Of a DNA stretch of 24,607 nucleotides, positions 4,874 through 21,612 are shown in pieces. This stretch comes from a virus (lineage: Duplodnaviria; Caudoviricetes), in IMG/VR virus record IMGVR_UViG_3300047274_000348, positions 1 through 24,607 of that record; one strand, given 5' to 3'. The notes beneath the pieces are model-generated. The model saw nothing but the letters and a program-made list of their open reading frames with translations, was not told the DNA's origin and made no database searches. Both the position numbers and the translations under genes were made by a program. How positions within the stretch are numbered: position 1 is the first letter of the stretch; the number at the start of each line of letters is the position of its first letter.

Positions 4874-7765
4874 GTGGCCTACAGAGCAGAAATCGAAATC
4901 GGCGTAAGGGGTACGGAAAAACTCCGCGATCTTCGAAACACTATCGAAGACCTAAGCAAGCGTATAAATAGACTAGACGACCTAGCCAATACTTTTAACG
5001 CACCAATACAAAGCGTAGCTAATTACACAAAAGCCGTAAATCAAGCTGCTGCTGCACTAAATAAAGCTGAACTTGGCTCACGAGACGAAACCGATGCTAT
5101 AAAAGCCCTTGCTCAAGCAATGGGCGAAGAAAACACAGTACGTCAACGCCGATTGTTTTTACTAGATACAGAGATAAAAAAACGTCAGGGATTACTACGG
5201 GCTGCTCCAGTGTCCGGCACCGTTGAACTAGGCCCCGGTGGCCCAGGTTTCAGCGGTGGTTTTTCTGCTAGTCAACGCCAGCAAGCAAACGAACAAGCTA
5301 TTTTACGCATCCGTCAAGAAGAAAATAAAATACGCAGGCAAAGTCTAGATATTGCTTCAAGAGAAGAACTATTTGAACTGCGTTTAGGGAAAATTTTAGA
5401 TAGAAATGCAAATGCTCTCAAACAACGAGAAAAAACAAGAGAAGCTACAAGTAACGCCATTATTGGTGGCGCCTTTCCGCTGCTTTTCGGTCAAGGCTTA
5501 GGCGCGTCTATCGGCGGCGGTGCTGGTGGTTTTGCCGGCGGTATGGCCGGCGGCCAATTTGGTTTTGGTTTGTCCCTTGTCGGCACAGCCCTAGGAAGTG
5601 TATTTGACCAAGCTATACAGTCTGCTAAAGACTTTTCTGTTTCTTTACGTGAAGGCGGCGACGCCGCAGGCTATCTCGAACAACAACTTGGGTATCTAGA
5701 CCCATCCATCAAAAAACAAATCCAGAATCTACAAGCATCCGGGCAAACAGCTAAGGCCGCGGAAGTAGCATTTAATGAGCTTGCTAGGCAAGTAGGGGTC
5801 GAAAATGCCACAGCGTTTAAGCAACTGGGCGATAACACATTTGTATTTACAACAGGTTTCCAACGACTCGTAACAACAATTATTGCTGGCGCGGCCCGTA
5901 TTGATGATGCACTGAAACCCATACGCGACCAGCGTTTGCTCCAAGGTCTAATCAGTGCGGTACCTGGAGTAAATGCTGCTACTTTAGTAAGGGGAGCAAC
6001 AGACTTTATCAGCGGTTTCGGTCAACAACCGGGCGCAGGCAACGATGCACAAACAAGCGCCGCAAGAGAAAGAACAGCCGAACTTACTAAAAGTAACGAT
6101 TTACTGCGCTTGCAGGTCCAACTAACTGCAGTAAACGCAAAAACAGACCTGGATCGCTACGTTACACTACAAAGACAAACAGCCCAAAAAGAATACGAAA
6201 ACGAACTAACAAAAATTAGTCTTCAGCTGAAAAAAGGCGAAGTAGACCTGGCGCAGAATGAACAACTCATACGAGCAGCAAACTTAAACCTGTCGATAAA
6301 ATTAGGTGAAATAGAACGCACCCGCACACAAGAATTGACCCGGCGAGCAGAAGAAGCACGCCAAGCCGCCGAACAAGCTGCCCAAAAAGAAATTCAAGCA
6401 AGAATTCAAATACTAAATTTACAGAGCCAAGTCCTTTCTGTGTTCGTCGAGCAAACACAAGCTCAGATTGCACGGGAAACTTTCCTTAAAGGCGAACTAG
6501 GCGGCCTCGAAGCCCAGCTCCAAGCACAAGACAAAATTGCTTTTGCGAAGGAGACAGCCCTGGAACGCGATCGCCAAGCTGCTTTGCTGGGCACAAAAAA
6601 TGCAGAAGAACAGAATCTAATCAATGCCGCGTACGCAAGACGTCTCAACCTGCTACAACAACAAAATGACTTGGAAGCAGCCCAGGCTGAACGTCGTAAA
6701 AATAGACTAAAACTCGAAGAGGAGTTAGCGGCTACCCAAAGACAACAAGACATCGAAGATAGTGTTGCATCTGTACGGCAGCAACAGCAAAAAGTATCTT
6801 TCGACATTGCTGGATTTACCAGCCCTGCCGATTTACTGCAACAAGAAAAACAGCTATTCGAACAACGCATACGCGCAAGAGAAACTCTTTTGCCACTAGA
6901 AAGAGAAATAACAAAACTTACCAAAGACATAAATTCTAGTTCTTTGGACGCAAACGCATTAAAAGCCAAACAAAATGACTTGGCTGCGCAGCAAGCAAAG
7001 CTCGTCCTTATGCAGCAAGAGCTTGGGCTGCTGGACCAACTGGAGCACCGGCAACTCCGCCTGCAACAATTCTTCGAGCGCTACGGCCAACTCATCCAAA
7101 CAGCCAGCGGAGAGATCGCCAACGCCGTTACTTTCGGCGTAGCAGAGATGGTACGCGGCACCAAGACAGCCGAACAGGTATTTGCCGACTTCCTAAACGC
7201 GATCGGCAACGCCCTGATCAGCGCTGCCCAACAGATGATCGCCACCTACATCGCAATCGGCATCGCCAAAATGTTCGCCGGCCTCAGCGGAGGTGGTAGC
7301 GCTAACACCGGCACATCTGTAGGCGGTTTGCCTGGCTCCAGTCTCCAAGGCGGTTTTGCTAATCCACTTGTTGGTCAGTATTCAACGCCACTTGCATTTG
7401 CCGACGGCGGCTTCGTTACAGGTCCTACCAACGCCGTGGTTGGCGAAGGCGGTGAATCCGAATACATCATCCCCGCCAGCAAGATGCGCTCCGCCATGAG
7501 CCGGTATGCTGCTGGCGCACGCGGCTCTGCAGTCATCCCGGCTGGCGACGACACCAGCAGCGGCGGCACCGCCACAATGGCACCAGCCGCCATCGACGTG
7601 CGCTACACCGTGGAACGCATCAACTCCGTTGATTACGTCACCGCCGACCAGTTCCGCGCTGGCATGGCCCAAGCCGCCCAGCAAGGCGCCACGCAAGGCG
7701 AACAGCGCACCCTTCGCCGCCTGCAGCAGTCCCGCGCCACTCGTAGCCGCCTCGGCATGAACTGA
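4874..7765 (+). CDS. Tail tape measure protein
   Basis: 963 aa, Ala/Gln/Leu-rich coiled coil, Gly-rich hydrophobic stretch (IIGGAFPLLFGQG), C-terminal FADGGFVTGPT..VGEGGESEYIIP motif. Confidence 0.92.
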   Translation: MAYRAEIEIGVRGTEKLRDLRNTIEDLSKRINRLDDLANTFNAPIQSVANYTKAVNQAAAALNKAELGSRDETDAIKALAQAMGEENTVRQRRLFLLDTEIKKRQGLLRAAPVSGTVELGPGGPGFSGGFSASQRQQANEQAILRIRQEENKIRRQSLDIASREELFELRLGKILDRNANALKQREKTREATSNAIIGGAFPLLFGQGLGASIGGGAGGFAGGMAGGQFGFGLSLVGTALGSVFDQAIQSAKDFSVSLREGGDAAGYLEQQLGYLDPSIKKQIQNLQASGQTAKAAEVAFNELARQVGVENATAFKQLGDNTFVFTTGFQRLVTTIIAGAARIDDALKPIRDQRLLQGLISAVPGVNAATLVRGATDFISGFGQQPGAGNDAQTSAARERTAELTKSNDLLRLQVQLTAVNAKTDLDRYVTLQRQTAQKEYENELTKISLQLKKGEVDLAQNEQLIRAANLNLSIKLGEIERTRTQELTRRAEEARQAAEQAAQKEIQARIQILNLQSQVLSVFVEQTQAQIARETFLKGELGGLEAQLQAQDKIAFAKETALERDRQAALLGTKNAEEQNLINAAYARRLNLLQQQNDLEAAQAERRKNRLKLEEELAATQRQQDIEDSVASVRQQQQKVSFDIAGFTSPADLLQQEKQLFEQRIRARETLLPLEREITKLTKDINSSSLDANALKAKQNDLAAQQAKLVLMQQELGLLDQLEHRQLRLQQFFERYGQLIQTASGEIANAVTFGVAEMVRGTKTAEQVFADFLNAIGNALISAAQQMIATYIAIGIAKMFAGLSGGGSANTGTSVGGLPGSSLQGGFANPLVGQYSTPLAFADGGFVTGPTNAVVGEGGESEYIIPASKMRSAMSRYAAGARGSAVIPAGDDTSSGGTATMAPAAIDVRYTVERINSVDYVTADQFRAGMAQAAQQGATQGEQRTLRRLQQSRATRSRLGMN

Positions 7766-8253: not shown

Positions 8254-8633
8254 TGTACGACCTGATCGGTCGCCCCTACCGCCTCGGCGCAGACGGCACC
8301 GACCCTGATGGCGCCATCGACTGCATCCACCTCGTCTACACAGCCCTCGACCGCCTCGGCATCGCCACCCCCGATTTCGACCCCTGCTGGTACGACGCCC
8401 CGCCTCGTCAAATCCTCAAGGCTATCCACGACTGGGGACGCCGCGTGCTAGATCCTTTGTATGATGGAGACGTGGTTCTCCTACCACACAAGAATTACGC
8501 TTTCGGGACAGTTTGGCAGGACGGCATCCTCTACATAACAGCCAGTCTGCAAGCGGCCACCTGGCACCCGCTTACGGCGTTTCCTGCACTCCGCTGCTAC
8601 CGCAGCAACTGCTCCCCTACGAGCGCCAACTAG
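8253..8633 (+). CDS. NlpC/P60-like tail protein (gpK-like)
   Basis: LIGRPYRLGADG...IDCIHLV N-terminal signature and DGDVVLL. Confidence 0.7.
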   Translation: MYDLIGRPYRLGADGTDPDGAIDCIHLVYTALDRLGIATPDFDPCWYDAPPRQILKAIHDWGRRVLDPLYDGDVVLLPHKNYAFGTVWQDGILYITASLQAATWHPLTAFPALRCYRSNCSPTSAN

Positions 8634-11600
8634 TCCAAGAGCTGGGCTGCACCGAACAAGAATATCTGGAGTTCAAGCAACGCATCGACTGGCTCAGCCG
8701 CGAACGTCCGGCGGAGTACGCCCATATTCCAGACATTGAGAACACAGGCGCGGAAATCATTGCCATTATCTCACTGGTTCTCGGCGTCGTTTCCCAAGGC
8801 CTTTCGCTGCTACTGGCGCCCAAGCCGCCATCGGCGCCCAAAGGGATTGAGAACCGGCAGCTCGACAGCATCGTCGGCCGCGATCGCTTCGCCCCAACAT
8901 ACGGCTTTCAGGCCAGCCAAGAACTAAGCCGCTACGGCGAAACGATTCCCATTGTCTTCACCAGGCAAAAATACGTCCAGCTCCCTCCTAGCCGCAGCGA
9001 CTTCTCCTACGTCGGTGGCATCATGGTCGCCCCCAAGCTGGTGTGGAGCCGCATGTACTCCCACGGCAGCTACCAGTCCGTCGACCTGGTCTTTCTGCTG
9101 GGACAGTCTCCTGTATCCAGAGGCCCATACGACACAGAAGCAGCCCGCAACGAAGACCGCGCTGGTATTTACATCGGCCAAGCCCCTCTTGATGCCCTCC
9201 AAGAATCCGACTTCCGGTGGTATTACTATTCCGGCGGTGAGCCAGTACCAAATAGCTCTGACTATCGACCAGCAACATTTGAGGGCAACAAAAATACAAC
9301 CGGGCAAAGCAGGCTTCTGGGACTCCATCGCCGCTATGGAGATTTCTGGATAGGCGAAGGCGAGCGCGAAAACGCATTTAGAAACCACACGTTTAGCGGC
9401 CTGGAAAGCACAGGGTTTAGCCATGCTTATTCCTTGACTAACCGCGCCGTTTTTGGCGTGTACAACGGCTTGCCGAACGGCACCCCTTACCGCCTTAACT
9501 GGGAAATCGTGCCCTATCCCGGCGCCTCCTCAGAACAGGCCGGTCAAACCCCAGTTGCCAAGCGCTTCCAGATCGCCGGCAACCCCAAAATGGCTGGCGT
9601 GGGACGTAACTATGCTCGCCAGTTCGGAATCGTCGAGCACATAAGAAACGGTCAGGTGACAACTGCACCAGGAGATCGAAGCCAAGGCTTAAAAGTAGAC
9701 ACGCAAGTAGGCGATCAAATCACGATCATCTACAACGAGGGGCGCGTCAGGGACGAGCTTTACTACGACAACAACAACCCCAACATTGTTGCAAACAAAA
9801 ACCGCAACACAGGCGATGGTTTTTTGTATGCCAACCCCGACGTTAATGCCGTGGACAACCGGCAGGTGCGCGACGCCATCCAAGCCGAACACGAACAGCA
9901 AGATGACTTACTAAAGATCGGCACCAAATGGATGATCGGTAACTGTATTTTTCAGGTTACCGCCAGAAATCCAGCCAATACAATATACGATCGCAGCGAC
10001 TTACAGCCTCGCACTGTTACTTTGGTGTGCAAAGAAGTCTTCGATGGGACAGTCGGGAAGGTCGGCGTGTGTCACCGTGGCTTCGTCAACACCGAAACCA
10101 ATCTCCCAGAAGGGCCAGACGGGGCAATCTATGACATCGGCCAAGCCTGGTTCCCAATCTGCAAAGCCGACATCGCATCGTTCCAAAATAGCCGTAGCTG
10201 TAACGTCACTGAAATAGGCATCAAAAGCAATGTCTGGAACAAACTAAACGGCATCTGCAATTTCAAATCAGTTCCCAACGTAACAAAACTACGGGATTAC
10301 GACGTTCAGAACATTGCACTAACCGCTGGAACAAACCAGTCATACATCCAGCGAGCCTCGTTCTTTGACGTCTACGTCAGGCCTGCCAACCAGTCATATG
10401 CTTTTAATCAGGGCTGGGAGAAACTAAATGACCATCCCTTTGCGGTGGTTGGATCAGCCCCGCAAGATCAGTTCAACTTTATCCGCATCGCCCACGGATT
10501 CGGGCAGTACGAGTTCAGACTGCGTCCTGTCACTTCAGGTGAAATCAATCAGATACGCAACGCCGACGGTTCCTACACAAAAGCAACCATCAACGGCATA
10601 ACCGTGGAAGGCCCTTGCTACCGACTCTATGTAGAAGGCGCTGTTCCTTATGCTGAAGGTCAGTACATTTCGCAAACAAAAACAACAAACTACGGGCTGT
10701 TTACGCTGTACATGATGGCAAAGCCCGCCAGCGTAAAAGAGCTGGCACTGGCGCCGGAAATGATCAGCAATCCCGTGTATCAAGGAGGGGCCTCAACATA
10801 CACCCCTCCCCCGTCGCGTGTCCGATTCCTCAAGGCAATAGCCTCAGATGCGTTGGACATAAACGCAAACGGATTTCGTATCAGCAACGGTATCGCTAAA
10901 GCCATCGACAAAGATCCCGATCCACGAGGAGCAGAACACAACACTTTCCATGGCACTCCAGTTATCACATACTTCCCCTTCAACGTTGGCGGCATTTACA
11001 CATTTTCCGAATCCGATAGCACCGCATTTCGCTACGACCAGGGTGGTCGTGTTGTGCGACTAAAGATGAAGCTGCGCTTGTACACCACGCCAGAAAACAT
11101 AACAGCTACAAACTTCCTGAGTCACTGGTGGGAAATTGTAGAGCCAGACAACATCGAAATTTTGCAGTTGACCGGCAGTTGGACTGGCAACGAAATCTTT
11201 GTCATTCGCAGCGTTCTGCGAAATCCCGCCATCACCATTGACTACTACTTCCAAATTGTCGCGCCAGTTCCCATCAGTTCTCCGCCCACTCTCGGTGGCG
11301 AAAGAACATTTGAAGGCAATGTAGGCATTGCCGAGGTATCACACTACGCAAATTTGATTTCGCGCAGTTGTGACAATGGTCCAGAGCATGAGATTGTCTA
11401 TATCAACGAAACCATTGCTCCTCGCAGCAACAGCCCAGCCACATACACGGGCTGCGCCATGGCGGGGCTCAAGCTCCGCAGCACAGCAGAACTGAACCAA
11501 CTGGAACAGCTTCACATTTACGCAAAGAACGGCATCAGCGTTACCAATCTGCGCCTGACCAGCAACGGCAACATTGTTGAAACCACTAGCTCTTCCAACA

Positions 11601-12602
11601 TTTTCACTGACCTCGCCTACTACTTACTCACCAACATCCAAACGGGAGCTGGCGAGCTGATCAGCTCCGACCTCATCGACAAGGCTCAGTTTGCCCGCAC
11701 GGCAATGTTCCTGGAGGCCAACTACTTGTATTACGACGACGTGATCGTCGAACCGCAAAACCTGCGCGAATTCCTGGCACGCATCAGCACTTCGCTGCTT
11801 TGCAACCTTGTCATGCGCGGCGGCAAGTTTTCAATCGAACCTGCCCTCCCCATCGACACCACACGCAACTACACGATCGGGCATCTTCACCGAAGGCAAC
11901 ATCATCGAGGACTCCTTCCAACTGGAATACGTCCAAGCTCAAGAGCGCCTGCCCATTCGTGCCATGGTGCGCTACCGCACCGAACTGCCCAACCGCTTCC
12001 CGCAAGAGCAAACAGCAGTCGTGTACTACACAGACCAGCCCAACGGCCCACTGGAGGAGTTCAACTTCACCCACATCACCAGCCGCTACCACGCCGAACT
12101 GTTCGCCAAGTACGCCCTGAGCGCCCGCCGTCACCGAACCCATGTGGTCAGCTTCCAGACGCTGCCCTACGGCCTTGGCCTAGCGCCCGGCGACTTCATC
12201 CGCGTGGTGACGCAAGCCAGCTACGTCCAGCCTGGTGCATCCGGCATCATCAAAGACAACGGCGCCATCATCACGCCAGCTCAGCTCACCAACGGCCAAA
12301 GCGTGCAGGTGTACTACTGGGACCGCAACGACAACGAGGTCAACGAAGACACGCTCGCCATCAGCATCGTTGACGGCCAGCCCAAAGCCAACAAACTGTT
12401 CGGCTCAATCTTTGCCATCAAAGACACAACAACGCGCTCGCTTGTCTACATGGTCGACTCCATCGACCTCGACGAAGAAGGCCTGGCACGCATCAGCGCC
12501 AGCTACTTCCCCATCGACGAAAACGGCTACAGCGTGGTCGCTAATGAACTCAAGCCTTCTTACAATGGATTCACGGTGGTAAGCGACCTGGCACCTGACT
12601 GA
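8513..12602 (+). CDS. Large tail tip / host-specificity protein (gpJ-like), frame broken at about 11880
   Basis: YGETIPIVF, PKLVWSRM, SNIFTDLAYYLLT motifs. Protein-like sequence in the 8513 frame stops at ...NYTI (11878) and resumes in the 11808 frame at GIFTEGNIIEDSF (11880) to 12602. Start (TTG 8513) is uncertain. Confidence 0.8.
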
Positions 12603-14273: not shown

Positions 14274-16715
14274 TTGGCAGACCTCAAAATTACAGAGCTG
14301 CAGGCCCTCGCTGGTGCCAACCTCGCAGCCACGGACGAACTGGCCATCGCGGACATCAGCGCCAGCGAAACCAAGAAAATCACGGTCAGCGACCTCATCG
14401 CATACGGCGCCGACCTCATCTCGAACGCCGAGATCCCTAGCGCCAAGATCAGCTTTGCCGCTGGATCCATTGTCGAGGCATCGCTTGCCACTGGCTCTGT
14501 CACTGCCACCAAGATTGGCGCCGACGCTGTAACGGCCGCCAAACTCGGAGACCAAAGCACCTGCATCGTTGCCGCCAGCAAAGCTGCCCTCGATGCAGTC
14601 ACTGGCGACTTCATCGGTCAACTCGGCTTCACCACCGACACCGTCAAGATCTACCTTTGGCAGAACAGCACTTGGAACTCGGTTAAAGCTGCTGGCTCGA
14701 TCAACACGATCACGGCTGACACCAGCGGCATCGTCAACATCACCGTCAGCACCAGCGGCGACACCGCCACTGTTGGCACCAGCCTCGACAACACAGGCGC
14801 CGCCGGCCAATTCCTCGCAGGCCCGACTGGCTCTGCTGGAGCCGTCAGCTACCGCACCATCGCTGGCGCTGATCTCCCCACGGCCACCACGAGCGCGAAA
14901 GGCGGCGTCATCATCAATGGCGGCGGCCTGACAATGAGTGGCGACACCGCCGTCATCAACAACACCGTCACCCCTGTCACCGACTCCCTCCGCAAACTCA
15001 CCTACAACGCACAAGGCCTGATCACCGCCAGCACTGCTGTTGCTGGCTCCGATTTGCCTGTTGCCACCAGCGCCCTTACCGGCGCCGTTCGCCCCGGCAC
15101 TGGCCTCAGCGTTGACGGCAGCGGCGTCCTCAACCACTCCAACAGCGTTGCAGGCACCACGCAAAACGGCATCACCTTCGACGCCCAAGGCCACATCACC
15201 AATGCCACGGCGCTAGTTGCAGGCGACATTCCAGACCTTCCGGCCACCAAACTGACCAGCGGTTCGCTCGATATTGCCCGCATCACAAACAACACCGTCA
15301 CTGGCGCCAAGCTGGCAAATTACTCCATCACAAAAATCGGGGAAACGCAGCCCACGGCCGACATGATCGGCCAGTTCTTCTTCAATCCCCTCACCCGCGA
15401 CCTTTTCCTCTGGGACGGTAACGTCTTCCAGCCCATCGGCATCTCGGTGGGCGAAATCATCTTCGCTGGCACCTTCGACGCCTCCGCTGGAAGCGGCACT
15501 GGCCTGATCGCTACCGTCACCGCAGAAGGTACTGCCATCGGCCTGGTCGTCGGCCAGCCGCTACCTGCCGCCGCCACAGCCAACAACCGCTACTACTTGG
15601 TTGTTTCCGAGGCTGGCACGATCACCAGCGGCAACGCCCCGAATGTTGCCCTGGCACCGCCTGACATCGTCCTGTCGAACGGCAACGAGTGGACTGAGGT
15701 GGACGTTAGCCAGACGATCACCAGCGTCACCGCCAACCAAGTTAGCTACACGCCCAGCGGCGGCCTTGCTGCTGTCAACGTCCAGGCCGCCCTCGACGAG
15801 CTAGAAACAGAAAAGCTGGCCTTGGCCGGTGGCACGATGACCGGCGAGCTGCTGATCGGCAGCGCCGGCAGCTTTGCGTTTGAGGGCTCCACTGCCAACG
15901 CCTACGAAACCTACCTGACCGCCGCCGACCCGACCGCCGACCGGACTATCACCTTCCCGGACCAAAGCGGCAATGTCATCGTTAGCGGCAACGCCAGCAT
16001 CGTCAACGCGGACATCAACGCCAGCGCCGCCATCGCCTTCAGCAAGCTGGCCGCACTGACCAGCGCCAACATCCTCGTCGGCAACAGCAGCAACGTGGCC
16101 ACTTCCGTCGCCATGAGCGGCGATGTAACGATCAGCAACACTGGGGCAACCACCGTCGTTAGCGGCAGCACCAGCGTCGCCGGCAAGCTGCAACTCACCG
16201 ACAGCACCAGCAGCACCAGCACAACGACAGCCGCCACACCCAACGCGGTCAAGACCGCCTACGACCTGGCCAACGCAGCGCTGCCCAAGAGCGGTGGCAC
16301 GATGACCGGAGCGATCACGTTCGCTGCAGGACAAACGATCAGCGGCTATGCAGCACTGGCCACGGCGCAGTCGTTTACCGCCGCCCAGCGTGGCACCATC
16401 AGCGCCCTTGGCGCAGTCACGGCTGGAACCACCACGTTGGACTTCGCCACTGCCAACAACTTCAGCCTGAGCCTCCCCGCTGGCGGCACTGTGACACTGG
16501 CCACGCCCAGTAATATCACAGCCGGCCAAAGTGGCTGTATCGTCATCACACAGAACAGTGGCACTGCAGCTCTTGTGGCCTACTCCACTGCCTGGAAATG
16601 GAAAGGCGGCGCACCCTCAATGAGCACAACGCTCAGTAGCGTCAACGTCATCGCCTACTTTGTGGAATCCGCTAGCCGGATCACCGCCACCCTCCTCGAC
16701 AACACCGTCAACTAA
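14274..16715 (+). CDS. Tail fibre protein
   Basis: MADLKITEL start; Thr/Ala/Gly-rich; repeated DLPxAT and GGTMTG motifs; phage fibre repeat KLQLTDSTSSTSTTTAATPNAVKTAYDLAN. Confidence 0.85.
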   Translation: MADLKITELQALAGANLAATDELAIADISASETKKITVSDLIAYGADLISNAEIPSAKISFAAGSIVEASLATGSVTATKIGADAVTAAKLGDQSTCIVAASKAALDAVTGDFIGQLGFTTDTVKIYLWQNSTWNSVKAAGSINTITADTSGIVNITVSTSGDTATVGTSLDNTGAAGQFLAGPTGSAGAVSYRTIAGADLPTATTSAKGGVIINGGGLTMSGDTAVINNTVTPVTDSLRKLTYNAQGLITASTAVAGSDLPVATSALTGAVRPGTGLSVDGSGVLNHSNSVAGTTQNGITFDAQGHITNATALVAGDIPDLPATKLTSGSLDIARITNNTVTGAKLANYSITKIGETQPTADMIGQFFFNPLTRDLFLWDGNVFQPIGISVGEIIFAGTFDASAGSGTGLIATVTAEGTAIGLVVGQPLPAAATANNRYYLVVSEAGTITSGNAPNVALAPPDIVLSNGNEWTEVDVSQTITSVTANQVSYTPSGGLAAVNVQAALDELETEKLALAGGTMTGELLIGSAGSFAFEGSTANAYETYLTAADPTADRTITFPDQSGNVIVSGNASIVNADINASAAIAFSKLAALTSANILVGNSSNVATSVAMSGDVTISNTGATTVVSGSTSVAGKLQLTDSTSSTSTTTAATPNAVKTAYDLANAALPKSGGTMTGAITFAAGQTISGYAALATAQSFTAAQRGTISALGAVTAGTTTLDFATANNFSLSLPAGGTVTLATPSNITAGQSGCIVITQNSGTAALVAYSTAWKWKGGAPSMSTTLSSVNVIAYFVESASRITATLLDNTVN

Positions 16716-19189
16716 TGCTGGTACCAGGCTCGTCCACCCCGCTCCTGGCGCACAGCGCCGCTGCCGCTGCAACGGGCATCTCCAGGAGCCTGCGCTTCAA
16801 TAGTAGTGACAGTGCCTACTGTTCCAGAGTTCCCGCCTCTGCTGGCAACCGCAAGACCTGGACCTGGGCGGGGTGGGTGAAGCGGAGTGGGCTGGGTGGC
16901 CTCACCGATACATTGATGGATGCACGCACTGGGTCTAATGAGAGCCCCTTGTGTTTTAACGAGTCAGTAGAAAATACGCTTTCGCTGTACGAATACAACA
17001 GCTCATACATTTGGCAGCTAAGGACAACGCAGGTTTTTCGTGATCCTTCATCTTGGTATCACATCGTTGCGTCGGTTGACACAACGCAAGCCACGGCAGC
17101 CAACAGAGTAAGGTTATACGTAAACGGAACGCAGATCACCGCTTTTGCTGTAGCCAATTACCCAAGTCAAAATCACGATACTTTTTGGAACACAACAAAT
17201 CCACATGTTATTGGTCAAAAAGCTCTCCTTTCTGGGAGTTTTTATGACGGCTACCTCGCCGACATCTACTTCATCGACGGCCAAGCGCTGACCCCCAGCA
17301 GCTTCACCGAAACCGACGCCACCACCGGCCAGCTCATCCCGAAGGCGTATACCGGCAGCTACGGCACCAACGGCTGGCATCTGGAGTTCGCGGACAACAG
17401 CAGCAACACCGCGACCACACTAGGGAAGGACACTAGTGGCAACGGCAATAACTGGACGCCGAACAACCTGTCGGTCACCGCTGGTGCAGGAAACGACTCC
17501 CTCGTAGACGTTCCCACTAATGGGGCCCAGACAGATACGGGCGTTGGGGGTGAGGTGAGGGGCAATTATGCGACGCTGAATCCGCTGGAGAGTGCCAACA
17601 CGCTCTCAAACGGAAACCTTGATGTCACGTCTGGATCTGCAAGCTGGAAGATTTCGGCATCGACTATCTACGCGCAAACCGGGAAATGGTACTGCGAGTT
17701 TACCTTGAACGCCGTGCAGGGTTATCCGCAGATTGGTGTTTACGCTGCAGGATCTACTTTTGCAACGTCAGGTCTGATGGGAACATCATCGACTGGCTAC
17801 GCATATAACTCCTTCAACGGAAACAAAATTAACAACAACTCTAGCTCTGCTTACGGCAACTCTTGGACAACTGGCGACACAATCGGTATTGCATACGACC
17901 TCGACAATGGTGCGCTCTATTTTTCTAAAAACGGCACTTGGCAAAACTCAGGCGTGCCAACCAGCGGCGCATCAAAAACAGGCGCGGCGTTTTCGCTCCC
18001 TGCCGGTATCTTCTACACCGTAGCGATCAGTGCTTATGGGTCTGACGCTGGATCGTTCAACTTCGGCCAACGCCCCTTCGCCTACACGGCCCCCAGCGGC
18101 TTCAAGGCGCTCTGCACGGCAAACCTGCCCGCCCCATTAGTCACGAAGCCTAATACGGTCTTCGATACGGTTCTTTATACAGGCACAGGTAGCACGCAGA
18201 CGATCAGCAGCCTCCAGTTCAACCCAGATTTTCTGTGGATTAAAAACCGCGACACTGCCGGCTACAACCATCATTTAACTGATGTCGTTCGTGGCGTGAC
18301 TCAGCGACTCAGGTCAAACACCACTGGCGCTGAACTAACGACCACAGATCAAGTTACGGGCTACACATCAACAGGTTTCACGCTTGGCGCTGACAGTGCT
18401 GGCCCTGGTGACCTTGAATGTAACCAAAGCTCAAAGACATACGTCGCCTGGGCCTGGGACGCCGGAAGCTCCACCGACACCAACAACACAGCAGGCTCCA
18501 TCACTTCTCAGGTGAGGGCTAATACCAGTGCGGGGTTCTCCGTGCTCACCTATAGCGGTGCCAATGGTGGCACAGTCGGTCATGGTTTAGGAGTTGCACC
18601 GTCACTTGTCATCGTTAAATGCCGAAGCAATGCGGATGGGTGGGTGACGTACCACAAGGATCTTGGTCCTACTAATACTCTGCAGCTTCAATCTACCAAC
18701 GCAGTTCAAACGTCAGACACAACTGCATTCAATTCAACAGCACCATCTTCAACGCTTGTAACGCTCGGAAATAGCGGAAGAACTTGTGAATCTGGCCGCA
18801 CCTACGTCGCCTACTGCTTCGCCCCAGTAGTCGGGTACTCTAGCTTTGGCAGCTACACCGGCAACGGCAGCTCGGATGGCCCCTTTGTGTATACCGGGTT
18901 TAGGCCGAGGTGGGTGATGATCAAACATTACTCTGGAACAATTAGCGACCAAGTTAATGCATTGTGGATGATTGTGGATTCAGCGAGAAATACATACAAC
19001 GTTGTTAATTTAAGACTGCACGCAAATAGTTCGGCACAGGAAACTAATCTTGGAGAAACCATAATGGATTTTACTAGCAACGGATTCAAACTTCGTTGGA
19101 CGCCTTCCGACGTGGCAAATGCAAATGGCGGTAACTACATCTATGCCGCCTTTGCTGAGGCGCCCTTCAACTACGCCCGCGCCCGCTGA
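16715..19189 (+). CDS. Putative receptor-binding protein: LamG/ConA-like domain, SPRY-like domain and three C-terminal repeats
   Basis: SLRFNS..WTWAGWVKRS..WYHIV..RVRLYVNG (LamG-like); GKWYCEF..GDTIGIAYDLDNG.LYFSKNG (SPRY-like); three units beginning YTGTG/YSGAN/YTGNG and ending YVAWAW/YVAYCF/YIYAAF. Confidence 0.8.
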   Translation: MLVPGSSTPLLAHSAAAAATGISRSLRFNSSDSAYCSRVPASAGNRKTWTWAGWVKRSGLGGLTDTLMDARTGSNESPLCFNESVENTLSLYEYNSSYIWQLRTTQVFRDPSSWYHIVASVDTTQATAANRVRLYVNGTQITAFAVANYPSQNHDTFWNTTNPHVIGQKALLSGSFYDGYLADIYFIDGQALTPSSFTETDATTGQLIPKAYTGSYGTNGWHLEFADNSSNTATTLGKDTSGNGNNWTPNNLSVTAGAGNDSLVDVPTNGAQTDTGVGGEVRGNYATLNPLESANTLSNGNLDVTSGSASWKISASTIYAQTGKWYCEFTLNAVQGYPQIGVYAAGSTFATSGLMGTSSTGYAYNSFNGNKINNNSSSAYGNSWTTGDTIGIAYDLDNGALYFSKNGTWQNSGVPTSGASKTGAAFSLPAGIFYTVAISAYGSDAGSFNFGQRPFAYTAPSGFKALCTANLPAPLVTKPNTVFDTVLYTGTGSTQTISSLQFNPDFLWIKNRDTAGYNHHLTDVVRGVTQRLRSNTTGAELTTTDQVTGYTSTGFTLGADSAGPGDLECNQSSKTYVAWAWDAGSSTDTNNTAGSITSQVRANTSAGFSVLTYSGANGGTVGHGLGVAPSLVIVKCRSNADGWVTYHKDLGPTNTLQLQSTNAVQTSDTTAFNSTAPSSTLVTLGNSGRTCESGRTYVAYCFAPVVGYSSFGSYTGNGSSDGPFVYTGFRPRWVMIKHYSGTISDQVNALWMIVDSARNTYNVVNLRLHANSSAQETNLGETIMDFTSNGFKLRWTPSDVANANGGNYIYAAFAEAPFNYARAR

Positions 19190-19212
19190 CCACACTAGAG
19201 AACAAGACTTTT

Positions 19213-19446
19213 GTGGCAGTGAATACGATGCCTGACCTCTCCCCCGCCGCGCAGGCGGTGCTGGATGCTTCTTCAAACGCCCCGGTTGGGGATGGATGGA
19301 ACGCCGACCGACTAGCCATCGCCGCCGCCCTGCGAGCTGCTGCTCAATTCAACCCTGGCCCGTTCGTGCCTGAGTTGTTTGACGAGGGCTGGAAAGCTGC
19401 AATGACTGAACTGGAATATATAGCCGACCAGCTTGAAGCCCAGTAG
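19213..19446 (+). CDS. Hypothetical protein (LSPAAQAVLDA...IAAALRAAA type)
   Basis: Helical 72-77 aa ORF with an alternative ATG at 19228; its TAG stop lies within the 19444 site. Confidence 0.7.
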   Translation: MAVNTMPDLSPAAQAVLDASSNAPVGDGWNADRLAIAAALRAAAQFNPGPFVPELFDEGWKAAMTELEYIADQLEAQ

Positions 19447-19460
19447 TCATTCCAACTTCC

Positions 19461-19652
19461 ATGTCTAACGAAATTACCCTTCTTGATACCATCACCGAAG
19501 TTATCAGTAACGGTGACGACGCCCACCACTTCAGGGAAACTGCTCTAGAAGCTGTTTGCTACGCCGCTTCATGGCTGCGAAAGGAAGGTTTTTGGCAGGC
19601 AGCCGATGTGCTAATCACTGAAATCAACGGCGATTACCGTGATCTTGAGTAG
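19461..19652 (+). CDS. Hypothetical protein (63 aa)
   Basis: ATG 2 nt after the 19444 site; TAG stop within the 19650 site; AASWLRKEG..AADVL helical pattern. Confidence 0.65.
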   Translation: MSNEITLLDTITEVISNGDDAHHFRETALEAVCYAASWLRKEGFWQAADVLITEINGDYRDLE

Positions 19653-19661
19653 TCGCTTCCT

Positions 19662-19880
19662 CTACACGCCCTGCAGCTTGTCCACACTTTCCGAAAAGCG
19701 CCACATCGCGTCGGCATAACTGGCACCGATAGGCTCTGGTTGTGGCTCTGGTGTTTTGTATCCAGCTTGGTCGAGCACGGCACGGGCAAAGTCGAGCACG
19801 CCCTGATCGCTGAAGCAGATGTAATTGGTGAAGCAGTTTGCGTGCATGTACATAATTTCTTGGATCTCTTCGTCGGTCAT
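19662..19880 (-). CDS. Hypothetical protein (72 aa)
   Basis: MTDEEIQEIM...VLDFARAVL; start reassigned to the ATG at 19880; its stop is the CTA arm of the 19650 site. Confidence 0.6.
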   Translation of the reverse strand: MTDEEIQEIMYMHANCFTNYICFSDQGVLDFARAVLDQAGYKTPEPQPEPIGASYADAMWRFSESVDKLQGV

Positions 19881-19955
19881 GGTGCCGTGATTGCGTGGGA
19901 GGCTAGAGTGACAGAAGCCTTCCAGCGGTGTCAACTACTAGACGCCTGAACCACT

Positions 19956-20486
19956 GTGTTTCTTCTCGACGGCAAACCCCTGGCTCTGGACGTGCCTTTT
20001 AAGCACGCTGGCATTCAGTACCCCGCCAACTGGCTCAGGCTGAGCAGCCCGCAGGAGCGCAAGGCGATTGGCATCACGGAGGTGCCGGATCCTCAGCCAT
20101 ACGATCAGCGCTTCTACTGGGGCTACGACGCCGAGGGCAAACTGATCCCGAAGGACCACACGCAACTGGTCGAGCAGTGGATGCAGCAGACACGCACCAC
20201 CGCCAACACGCTGCTGGCCCCTACGGACTGGATCATCATCCGCGAGGCCGATAACGGCAAAACAGCCGACCCCGTCTTACGGACCTGGCGCGAAGAAATC
20301 CGCCTTGCCTCAGGCAGCAAAAACTACGAAATTCGCAACACCGCCGATACCGAGGCACTCGCGGCCTACATCACCAGCCCGGATTACTCCGCTTGGCCAT
20401 CTGATCCCTACGCACCGCAGCCCGCTGCCCCCCAAGGCGACGACACCGTGCTGTTTAGCAACAACAGCACCAGCAGCGGATTCTGA
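19956..20486 (+). CDS. Putative tail fibre assembly chaperone
   Basis: QYPANWL, YDQRFYW, LLAPTDWIIIRE...WREEIR motifs typical of fibre-associated chaperones; downstream of the fibre genes. Confidence 0.65.
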   Translation: MFLLDGKPLALDVPFKHAGIQYPANWLRLSSPQERKAIGITEVPDPQPYDQRFYWGYDAEGKLIPKDHTQLVEQWMQQTRTTANTLLAPTDWIIIREADNGKTADPVLRTWREEIRLASGSKNYEIRNTADTEALAAYITSPDYSAWPSDPYAPQPAAPQGDDTVLFSNNSTSSGF

Positions 20487-21066: not shown

Positions 21067-21368
21067 CTCAACCACCACTGAATCGCATCCTCCACATGCG
21101 GCTCCCAGAACTCCTGCATCCGAAACCACGCTGACCATTCCGTGGAACTCTTCCGGGTGTTGCACGACAGGCAACACGCCACCAAATTCGATGGCACCGT
21201 CTCACCACCTTTCGACTTGGGACGCACGTGATCCAGCGTCCCCGACTTGCCAAGCGGCTCGCGGCAATACGCGCATTTGTAATCCCAGCCCTTCAATATC
21301 TGCTCTCGAAACCTGGCCTTAGCCTCGCGTTTACGAACAAACCCGTCTTGCTCGTCGATGTAATCCAC
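21060..21368 (-). CDS. HNH endonuclease
   Basis: CAYC...TLDHVRPKSKGG...NLVACCLSCNTRK. Confidence 0.92.
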   Translation of the reverse strand: MDYIDEQDGFVRKREAKARFREQILKGWDYKCAYCREPLGKSGTLDHVRPKSKGGETVPSNLVACCLSCNTRKSSTEWSAWFRMQEFWEPHVEDAIQWWLSQ

Positions 21369-21471
21369 ACCGCGCAGCAGCTACCCCAACGGTAGCGACA
21401 GAAACAGCGTTATTGCTAAAACGCTTGCCACCACAGTTAGACTTACACAGAAAAGTCCCCTACTACATCTC

Positions 21472-21612
21472 ATGGACTTCCTGTCGCATCCAGCCTTCTG
21501 GATCGTGGTCGCCGCCGCCTCCGAGCTGATTGCTCTGTCCCCCCTCAAGAGCAACAGCATCGTCCAACTTGTTTTCCAAATCCTTAACCTCCTCAAGGCA
21601 AAAAAGGGCTGA
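21472..21612 (+). CDS. Small membrane protein, holin candidate (46 aa)
   Basis: Absent from the ORF track. MDFLSHPAFWIVVAAASELIALSPLKSNSIVQLVFQILNLLKAKKG*; hydrophobic with a basic tail; upstream of the endolysin. Confidence 0.75.
   Translation: MDFLSHPAFWIVVAAASELIALSPLKSNSIVQLVFQILNLLKAKKG

Follow-up and report, generated by a model that had tools for sequence, protein, structure and literature searches.

What makes the + strand of a lake phage's fibre gene turn from C-rich to G-rich again and again along its length? The question is raised by IMG/VR virus record IMGVR_UViG_3300047274_000348 (Duplodnaviria; Caudoviricetes), a linear virus contig of 24.6 kb that is 57% complete; its positions 1 to 24,607, the whole stretch of DNA analyzed, are referred to here as the window and hold capsid, tail, lysin and DNA polymerase-like open reading frames (ORFs). 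The flips lie in a fibre-like virion gene encoding 824 amino acids (aa; 16715-19189, + strand), with a SPRY domain at residues 324-452 and DUF7483 at residues 478-817. They fall at islands of conserved DNA that serve as joints between AT-rich blocks, and these blocks are exchanged individually among related phages. On entering a variable block, each strand is G/T-rich for about 45 nucleotides (nt); on leaving it, the strand is C/A-rich.

Joints and variable blocks of the fibre-like gene

Homologues came from searches with the fibre-like gene (best 80 of 215 loci) and with the next conserved gene (best 80 of 241), together with 21 motif loci, yielding 100 full-length ORFs of which 73 are distinct. 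With the window gene these form a set of 74, in which no two members reach 90% identity; the selection took intact forward ORFs only, and all 74 are collinear. In the alignment, five internal DNA-conserved islands (synonymous identity 0.41-0.71) alternate with AT-rich blocks that are at synonymous saturation (0.25-0.36). Where the protein is conserved with no TAG-N9-CTA dyad (hereafter a site) nearby, synonymous identity is 0.29-0.30 at 17045-17130 (amino-acid identity 0.53-0.62) and 0.30 at 18575 (amino-acid identity 0.72). Over 238 protein-conserved fourfold codons, synonymous identity is lower the farther the codon lies from a site (rho -0.38), and GC content at fourfold positions (GC4) falls from about 0.7 near sites to 0.43 at 200-260 nt, rising again beyond 260 nt because of the site-less island 5.

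Exchange between these genes proceeds by single blocks. Among 2701 gene pairs, 2604 share none and 25 share a block at an identity of at least 90%, 23 of the 25 sharing exactly one. Such sharing between otherwise saturated genes bears out an earlier proposal, in which the variable interiors have homology arms in their conserved flanks, as do the 44 exchange-tract ends, which are scattered over the islands, and the decay of linkage within about 20 nt inside them (r2 0.13, falling to 0.05 by 18 nt, and low throughout). In lake runs X5, X9 and X12, from three studies distinct from that of the possible source, summed contig depth amounts to hundreds in bins over islands and to 0-21 in those over blocks, and contigs connect island to island over differing letters; as the depth is a sum over organisms, it is evidence of sharing only. 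Long homologues carry whole extra domains of 130-290 aa, some of them glycine-rich, at about 17455-17490 (L061, L028, L006, L026, L051 and others). No direct or inverted repeats of note were found between islands. The features lie as follows.

16796-16894, + strand: island 1, a DNA-conserved joint, G/T edge 16853-16894
16804-16818: TAG-N9-CTA site, frame +2
16895-17233, + strand: variable block V1, AT-rich, synonymous identity about 0.3
17234-17578, + strand: islands 2-3, C/A part from 17246, G/T edge 17525-17580
17421-17435: TAG-N9-CTA site, frame +1, no clear flip downstream
17505-17519: TAG-N9-CTA site, frame +1, flip at most 10 nt away
17590-18049, + strand: variable block V2, inside the SPRY domain, with three other lake runs holding near-identical copies
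18050-18240, + strand: island 4, C/A part 18059-18100, G/T edge 18152-18240
18138-18152: TAG-N9-CTA site, frame +1, flip at most 10 nt away
18245-18425, + strand: variable block V3
18428-18550, + strand: island 5, without an intact site, G/T edge 18506-18548
18492-18506: degenerate site CAG-N9-CTT, frame +1
18551-18790, + strand: variable block V4
18791-18920, + strand: island 6, G/T edge 18872-18920
18828-18855: TAG-N9-CTA site (18828-18842) and overlapping second dyad (18841-18855)
18930-19125, + strand: variable block V5
19133-19195, + strand: terminal C-rich island
19196-19210: terminal site TAG-N9-CTT, at whose right arm differing downstream pieces are joined in relatives
19213-19934: array of three small ORFs (19213-19446, +; 19461-19652, +; 19662-19934, -)
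19956-20486, + strand: conserved 176-aa gene closing the array, 5' end without a G shift

The N-terminal domain of the fibre-like protein has no Pfam match, with relatives annotated as lectin or concanavalin A-like, and the PHROG matches of the gene are phrog_19943 (virion structural) and phrog_24898 (tail fiber). From the annotation of the relatives, the protein is predicted to contribute to host recognition. A cyanobacterial host is suggested, since the tyrosine recombinase of relatives has Synechococcus phage S-LBS1 as its best cultured match; in the genome collection, two contigs are in bins, without host information.

Mirror-image polarity at silent positions

The C-rich stretches singled out in the preliminary description of this DNA (17250-17420, 18060-18137, 18800-18827 and 19160-19195) have a GC skew of -0.27 to -0.46 and its G-rich stretches (16861-16889, 17521-17562 and 18905-18919) a skew of +0.59 to +0.62; 18505-18535 stands at +0.33, and the middles of the blocks are AT-richer, as had been noticed, with a skew close to 0 and GC content of 0.40-0.46. 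Of all 40-nt windows, those at 16860 and 17533 have the strongest G skew (0.67; median -0.18).

As the islands were delimited from synonymous identity only, they are blind to skew. At fourfold sites of the window gene, their first 12 codons carry 16 C and 2 G and their last 12 codons 11 C and 18 G (Fisher p=7e-4); with one value per alignment column, the counts are 25 C and 3 G versus 10 C and 25 G (p=1e-6). Pooled fourfold skew moves from -0.59 over the first 12 codons to +0.29 over the last 12, where a model conditioned on the codon and the next two bases expects -0.23 and -0.43, and all five internal islands rise in skew from first to last. Synonymous positions had been named beforehand as the place to check, and the sign change is present there; amino acids are insufficient to account for it in fourfold, amino-acid-conditioned and context-conditioned tests.

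In C-parts and G-edges that were picked post hoc, the mirror is plain at fourfold sites (C.60 and G.13 in the former, G.47 and C.23 in the latter) and extends to T at NNY codons (.22 vs.57) and G at NNR codons (.40 vs.79). The C-parts of these same post-hoc regions are more C-skewed than the upstream gene of the same genome in all 66 loci, an excess which holds in the 35 loci with weak background (-0.63 vs -0.12). This excess and the mirror-image G-edges support the two-sided, strand-asymmetric process that had been envisaged.

The C side is partly background in this genome, because the + strand is C-rich at fourfold sites genome-wide, and since this is seen in genes of both orientations (six resident minus-strand genes stand at -0.26 to -0.71 on +) it is a strand effect. 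The genome-wide + strand fourfold skew is -0.4 to -0.8 in plus genes, remains toward C under minus-strand genes, and is stronger than in most relatives, the upstream gene at -0.56 being the most negative of 66. The reversed cassette ORF at 19662-19934 keeps the codon skew of a plus gene (sense -0.28), unlike the resident minus-strand genes, and would be a recent arrival from the other strand. Elsewhere in the window, the interiors of the tape-measure and large tail genes (4950-7050 and 9150-11300) are AT-richer with weak skew, and isolated G-rich 40-mers occur at 5360, 8010, 9333 and 10022. The large tail gene at 8513-12602 consists of two overlapping frames, 8513-12373 and 11808-12602, which suggests a frameshift near 11800-11900 or an assembly indel.

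The polarity is also found in other genes and phages. A fibre family with no similarity to the window gene (50 genes, from the best 80 of 241 loci) holds 163 sites against 32 in synonymous shuffles, 154 of the 163 in one frame, with a skew of -0.5 left of sites and +0.1 right. The sign changes in two of its five motif classes (-0.75/+0.25 and -0.40/+0.57), those with conserved DNA on the right; in the other three the skew only weakens. Four distant phages, chosen among the 20 matches listed of 73 (hosts Methylophilales, Roseobacter, Prochlorococcus and one unassigned), display a weaker keto versus amino polarity (p=0.004 and 0.0007) that is, in the AT-rich ones, chiefly T versus A; they hold 0-3 TAG-N9-CTA sites, the level of control spacings. 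Likewise, 20 site-less homologues of the window gene retain a weaker polarity (G.38 and C.29 vs C.60 and G.15).

Sites, breakpoints and the origin of the polarity

The preliminary description set the flips across sites that it left undefined, its coordinates stopping at TAG-N9-CT(A/T) words. TAG-N9-CTA occurs seven times in the window, all within 16804-19650, where 1.5 are expected window-wide; six are in the window gene (0.5 in synonymous shuffles), and the 74 genes hold 140 (47 in synonymous shuffles). The TAG and CTA arms are linked at all five sites, a linkage that shared descent could produce as well. A C-to-G change is indeed present in each internal island, but it is not centred on every site: left and right skew about the five site centres gives p=0.31-0.49 in the window gene and p=0.017-0.08 in the 73 homologues. 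Relative to the CTA end, the change point is at +34 nt for site 16804, +8 for 17505, -10 for 18138 and +29 for 18828, with none after site 17421; the flip is thus at most 10 nt away in three islands and roughly 30 nt rightward in two. The distance from the flip to the right border is 41, 50, 44 and 48 nt in four islands and 97 nt in island 4.

A process centred on the sites by cutting is borne out in part. Once two duplicate events and 10 ends in the site-less island 5 are taken from the 44 tract ends, 32 breakpoints are left, nine with medians inside the 15-nt sites (2.8 simulated, P=0.002; six of 13 at 18828, three of 10 at 18138, none of nine at 17421/17505), though several of the nine depend on a single base or on alleles lacking the site, and the null is without heterology barriers. 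The G-edge also strengthens with site number (rho 0.58, in genes that are not independent), and modest linkage dips lie just right of 18152 and 18841. Against the centring, polarity is seen in the site-less homologues and distant phages. Terminal sites, moreover, are not followed by a G shift: in 33 site-preceded 176-aa genes and 13 recombinase 3' ends, no G stretch made by a site alone was seen. Insertion of domains at the sites was rejected too; among those listed, insertions fall between 17421 and 17505 instead. The idea of a decayed site near 18505-18535 has some support, in a candidate word of the form [AC]AG-N9-CT[AT] at 18492-18506 with a change point at 18506; it is in the same frame as four intact sites and is present in 40 of the 74 genes, intact in one (raw count).

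Further sites occur in the small-ORF array, at 19444 (TAG-N9-CTT) and 19650 (TAG-N9-CTA), and at this position relatives have other cassettes or a tyrosine recombinase gene. Intergenic cassettes are G-richer at their start than at their end in just six of 10, site calling there being incomplete. A shared G-rich, promoter-like leader of 60 nt opens many cassette arrays after the terminal site (L001, L003, L024, L047, L104, L170, L195). TAG-N9-CTA recurs in relatives upstream of a small HNH gene, about 1.4 kb past the 176-aa gene (L087, L095, L108, L139 and others), with 23 matches in that 1-kb bin and a degenerate form in the window (21350-21480); this word is possibly an operator or promoter element.

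The flips are best read, at about even chances of being right, as an inherited mirror-image bias at silent positions of the joints, the footprint of break-repair recombination at joint edges. DNA ends inside a non-matching block would be resected 5' to 3' by a RecE-like exonuclease, and the exposed 3' tails would first be able to pair at the nearest joint edge, through RecT/Sak-type annealing or RecA; the + strand would therefore be single-stranded to the left of a block and the - strand to its right. C-to-T and A-to-G changes on the exposed strands, with joints held GC-rich by conversion, would then leave the mirror, and blocks too diverged for heteroduplex would drift AT-rich, with GC4 near 0.4. 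TAG-N9-CTA would mark the joints and probably add some events, without being required for the polarity. Exposure of single-stranded DNA carries a deamination bias. Such a bias on exposed single strands is named in passages of PMC8256042, and some relatives encode RecT-family and PD-(D/E)XK/DUF3799 proteins.

Several points weigh against a repair footprint. The contig, 57% complete, yielded neither an exonuclease nor an annealing gene, the support comes from the composition of standing sequences, and the rare-variant table leaves mutation and import inseparable. GC and TA skews are weakly correlated (over the whole gene r=0.24; for third positions of islands 0.17, p=0.35). The terminal island adjoins a variable array yet ends C-rich, island 2 adjoins the insertion point and has no flip, and a reach of 45 nt is short for resection. 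Part of the pattern is centred on sites: three flips lie at most 10 nt from a site's right arm, the G shift at 17421, 17505 and 18138 is greater in alleles that bear the site, and the in-site breakpoints exceed simulation. Because homologues share island ancestry, independent n is about five islands plus five motif classes.

It is possible, if doubtful, that the polarity stems from a 284-aa arm-less tyrosine recombinase which, mostly in trans, nicks or exchanges strands at TAG-N9-CTA; branch migration or repair would run both ways to heterology, homogenise the arms and leave a skew centred on the sites, which is the earlier cutting model plus an enzyme. At this length the protein would be without room for an arm-binding domain. 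Residues R144, K177, R240 and Y272 are invariant and Tyr replaces the first His of HxxR, positions presumed to form the catalytic motif. No NCBIfam model scores above cut-off and there is no solved relative; according to passages of PMC8138268, simple recombinases are found in 27 phages and arm-bearing ones in 410. The excess of sites over synonymous shuffles in both gene families favors this enzyme, as do the in-site breakpoints with their neighboring dips in linkage. The stop codon of the recombinase gene itself (PF00589) is the right arm of a site, and in 17 of 23 junctions TAG stands 9 nt before that stop; N9/CT or its immediate vicinity is where intergenic cassettes are joined, and the same family stands behind unrelated fibre genes with 2-8 sites (S-LBS1 and L187, L190, L191 and L192); genes beside it hold 3.4 sites versus 1.9 (5 vs 64 genes, p=0.023).

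Carriers of the recombinase, however, are few: 14 of 80 intervals, five of 42 long records searched (one a fragment) and three of 20 near-complete ones. It is absent from this 57%-complete contig and from a complete genome with five sites; 23 of the 32 breakpoints are outside sites, and some in-site ends separate alleles that have no site or depend on a single base of the spacer. Domain insertions between sites, polarity without sites and the lack of polarity after terminal sites also count against it. Its position fits a passenger, because every cassette joins at a site. In L062 (G012:C1:28739-28879) the last 47 codons alone survive, a remnant which indicates that the gene is gained and lost at the locus. 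No tRNA genes were found near the recombinase in 19 loci, and a screen of gene presence against site number over 147 clusters, among the matches listed, gave nothing convincing (recombinase 7/34 vs 0/11, p=0.17). A broader version, rather doubtful as a whole, would have freshwater cyanophages share a population-wide system of fibre shuffling, in which a minority of genomes supply an arm-less tyrosine recombinase that works in trans at in-frame TAG-N9-CTA sites of unrelated fibre genes and gene arrays; it would start exchanges there that finish by branch migration in the arms and leave the mirror G/T versus C/A footprint.

Selection for the polarity itself is unlikely. Here RecA or an annealing protein would be loaded more readily on G/T-rich 3' tails, or a G/C content confined to one side would keep arms unstructured, and conversion would spread the result. 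In its favor, the consensus is almost uniform at fourfold columns (C in 35 of 37 in C-parts, G in 12 of 13 in G-edges, in post-hoc regions), and RecA prefers TGG repeats according to passages of PMC3763553. Compared with arms whose G/C was redrawn, the real ones have weaker folding in nine of 12 cases on + (one tie, two stronger) and eight of 12 on the - strand, but the differences are mostly below 1.5 kcal/mol; the arms have no Chi-like word in common beyond composition, the T versus A form of the polarity in the AT-rich distant phages counts against selection, and G-edges show no preference for pairing with the C-parts that belong to them. A search for a Chi- or Shine-Dalgarno (SD)-like word returned one 5-mer in three of five edges (2.9 expected) and no 6-mer. 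Stems enclosing blocks were rejected as well, cognate G-edge/C-part pairs being no stronger than non-cognate ones, bar mild G3-C4, in the first 40 of the 74 genes with eight shuffles; register-anchored arm matches were not module-specific.

It is very improbable that rare G-ending or SD-like codon runs are there to slow the ribosome at domain starts: G-edges do stand at the start of each variable domain and AGG/AGA make up 61% of Arg there, but anti-SD pairing is no stronger than in synonymous redraws, minus-strand genes use G-ending codons throughout, and the C/A excess on the other side and the conservation at the DNA level are left unaccounted for. An artefact of amino-acid composition, neighboring bases, chance or misassembly is scarcely tenable and largely refuted by the conditioned tests, the replication in a second gene family and run X1 (a possible source), which tiles the gene with 0 differences, even with few independent islands and a site-centred test that is not significant in the window gene alone.

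Known systems and what the polarity would mean

Module swapping at conserved joints is already known. As in the T-even gp38/gp37 adhesins (PMC3157838), conserved and hypervariable segments alternate in a receptor-binding-type gene and exchange occurs in or near the conserved ones; the silent-site conservation beyond protein need, the shared dyad and the mirror strand skew seen here differ from what the available passages of that source describe. The PeSL cassettes of T4-type phages (PMC2839356) are similar in being short conserved intergenic elements where small genes shuffle; in the accessible passages they are promoter-terminator units, whereas the dyads here also lie in frame inside fibre genes. 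Integrons and shufflons (passages of PMC8138268) resemble the arrays of some relatives, in which small-gene cassettes are joined at a dyad beside an arm-less tyrosine recombinase, many junctions being at N9/CT, with others displaced by a few bases or lying to the left of the site. Unlike those systems, there are no attC-like hairpins (no cognate pairing beyond the short arms), most in-gene breakpoints are outside sites, and the recombinase is missing from the window and from most genomes.

GRINS (passages of PMC8256042) come closest in composition, with abrupt G+T versus C+A switches that are strongest at third positions in recombination-homogenised DNA and whose cause is open. The skew here is likewise strongest at silent positions and tied to homogenisation. 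In contrast to GRINS, the arms are 40-150 nt long, single copy in the contig and homogenised between genomes, with a polarity fixed relative to blocks. The window, from a contig 57% complete, has no off-diagonal self match and so none of the duplications of over 500 bp and over 80% identity within a cluster or genome that define GRINS; intensity over the gene is 0.12 and 0.11, so that it falls short in length, duplication and intensity. The feature is GRINS-like and is not GRINS.

In the cultured phage S-LBS1 (MG271909), a 63% identical recombinase lies directly behind a low-GC tail-fibre gene (L227:8292-10939) of a family different from that of the window gene, with three in-frame TAG-N9-CTA sites, one more before the recombinase, and C12/G0 left and C8/G8 right of the sites. 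The enzyme is read as a lysogeny integrase in passages of PMC6157547, which report no evidence of integration; the in-gene sites go unmentioned in those passages.

A fixed strand polarity at the joints of phage genes was not found in the literature searched, which covered few subscription papers. If the polarity is a recombination footprint, it reveals which strand is exposed during phage gene shuffling and allows block borders and exchange joints to be recognised from a single genome, and it would bring the origin of GRINS-type skew into a system of 100 nt with a cultured relative in S-LBS1. Were fibre shuffling in trans to prove true, it would be a miniature, testable origin for skews of that type.

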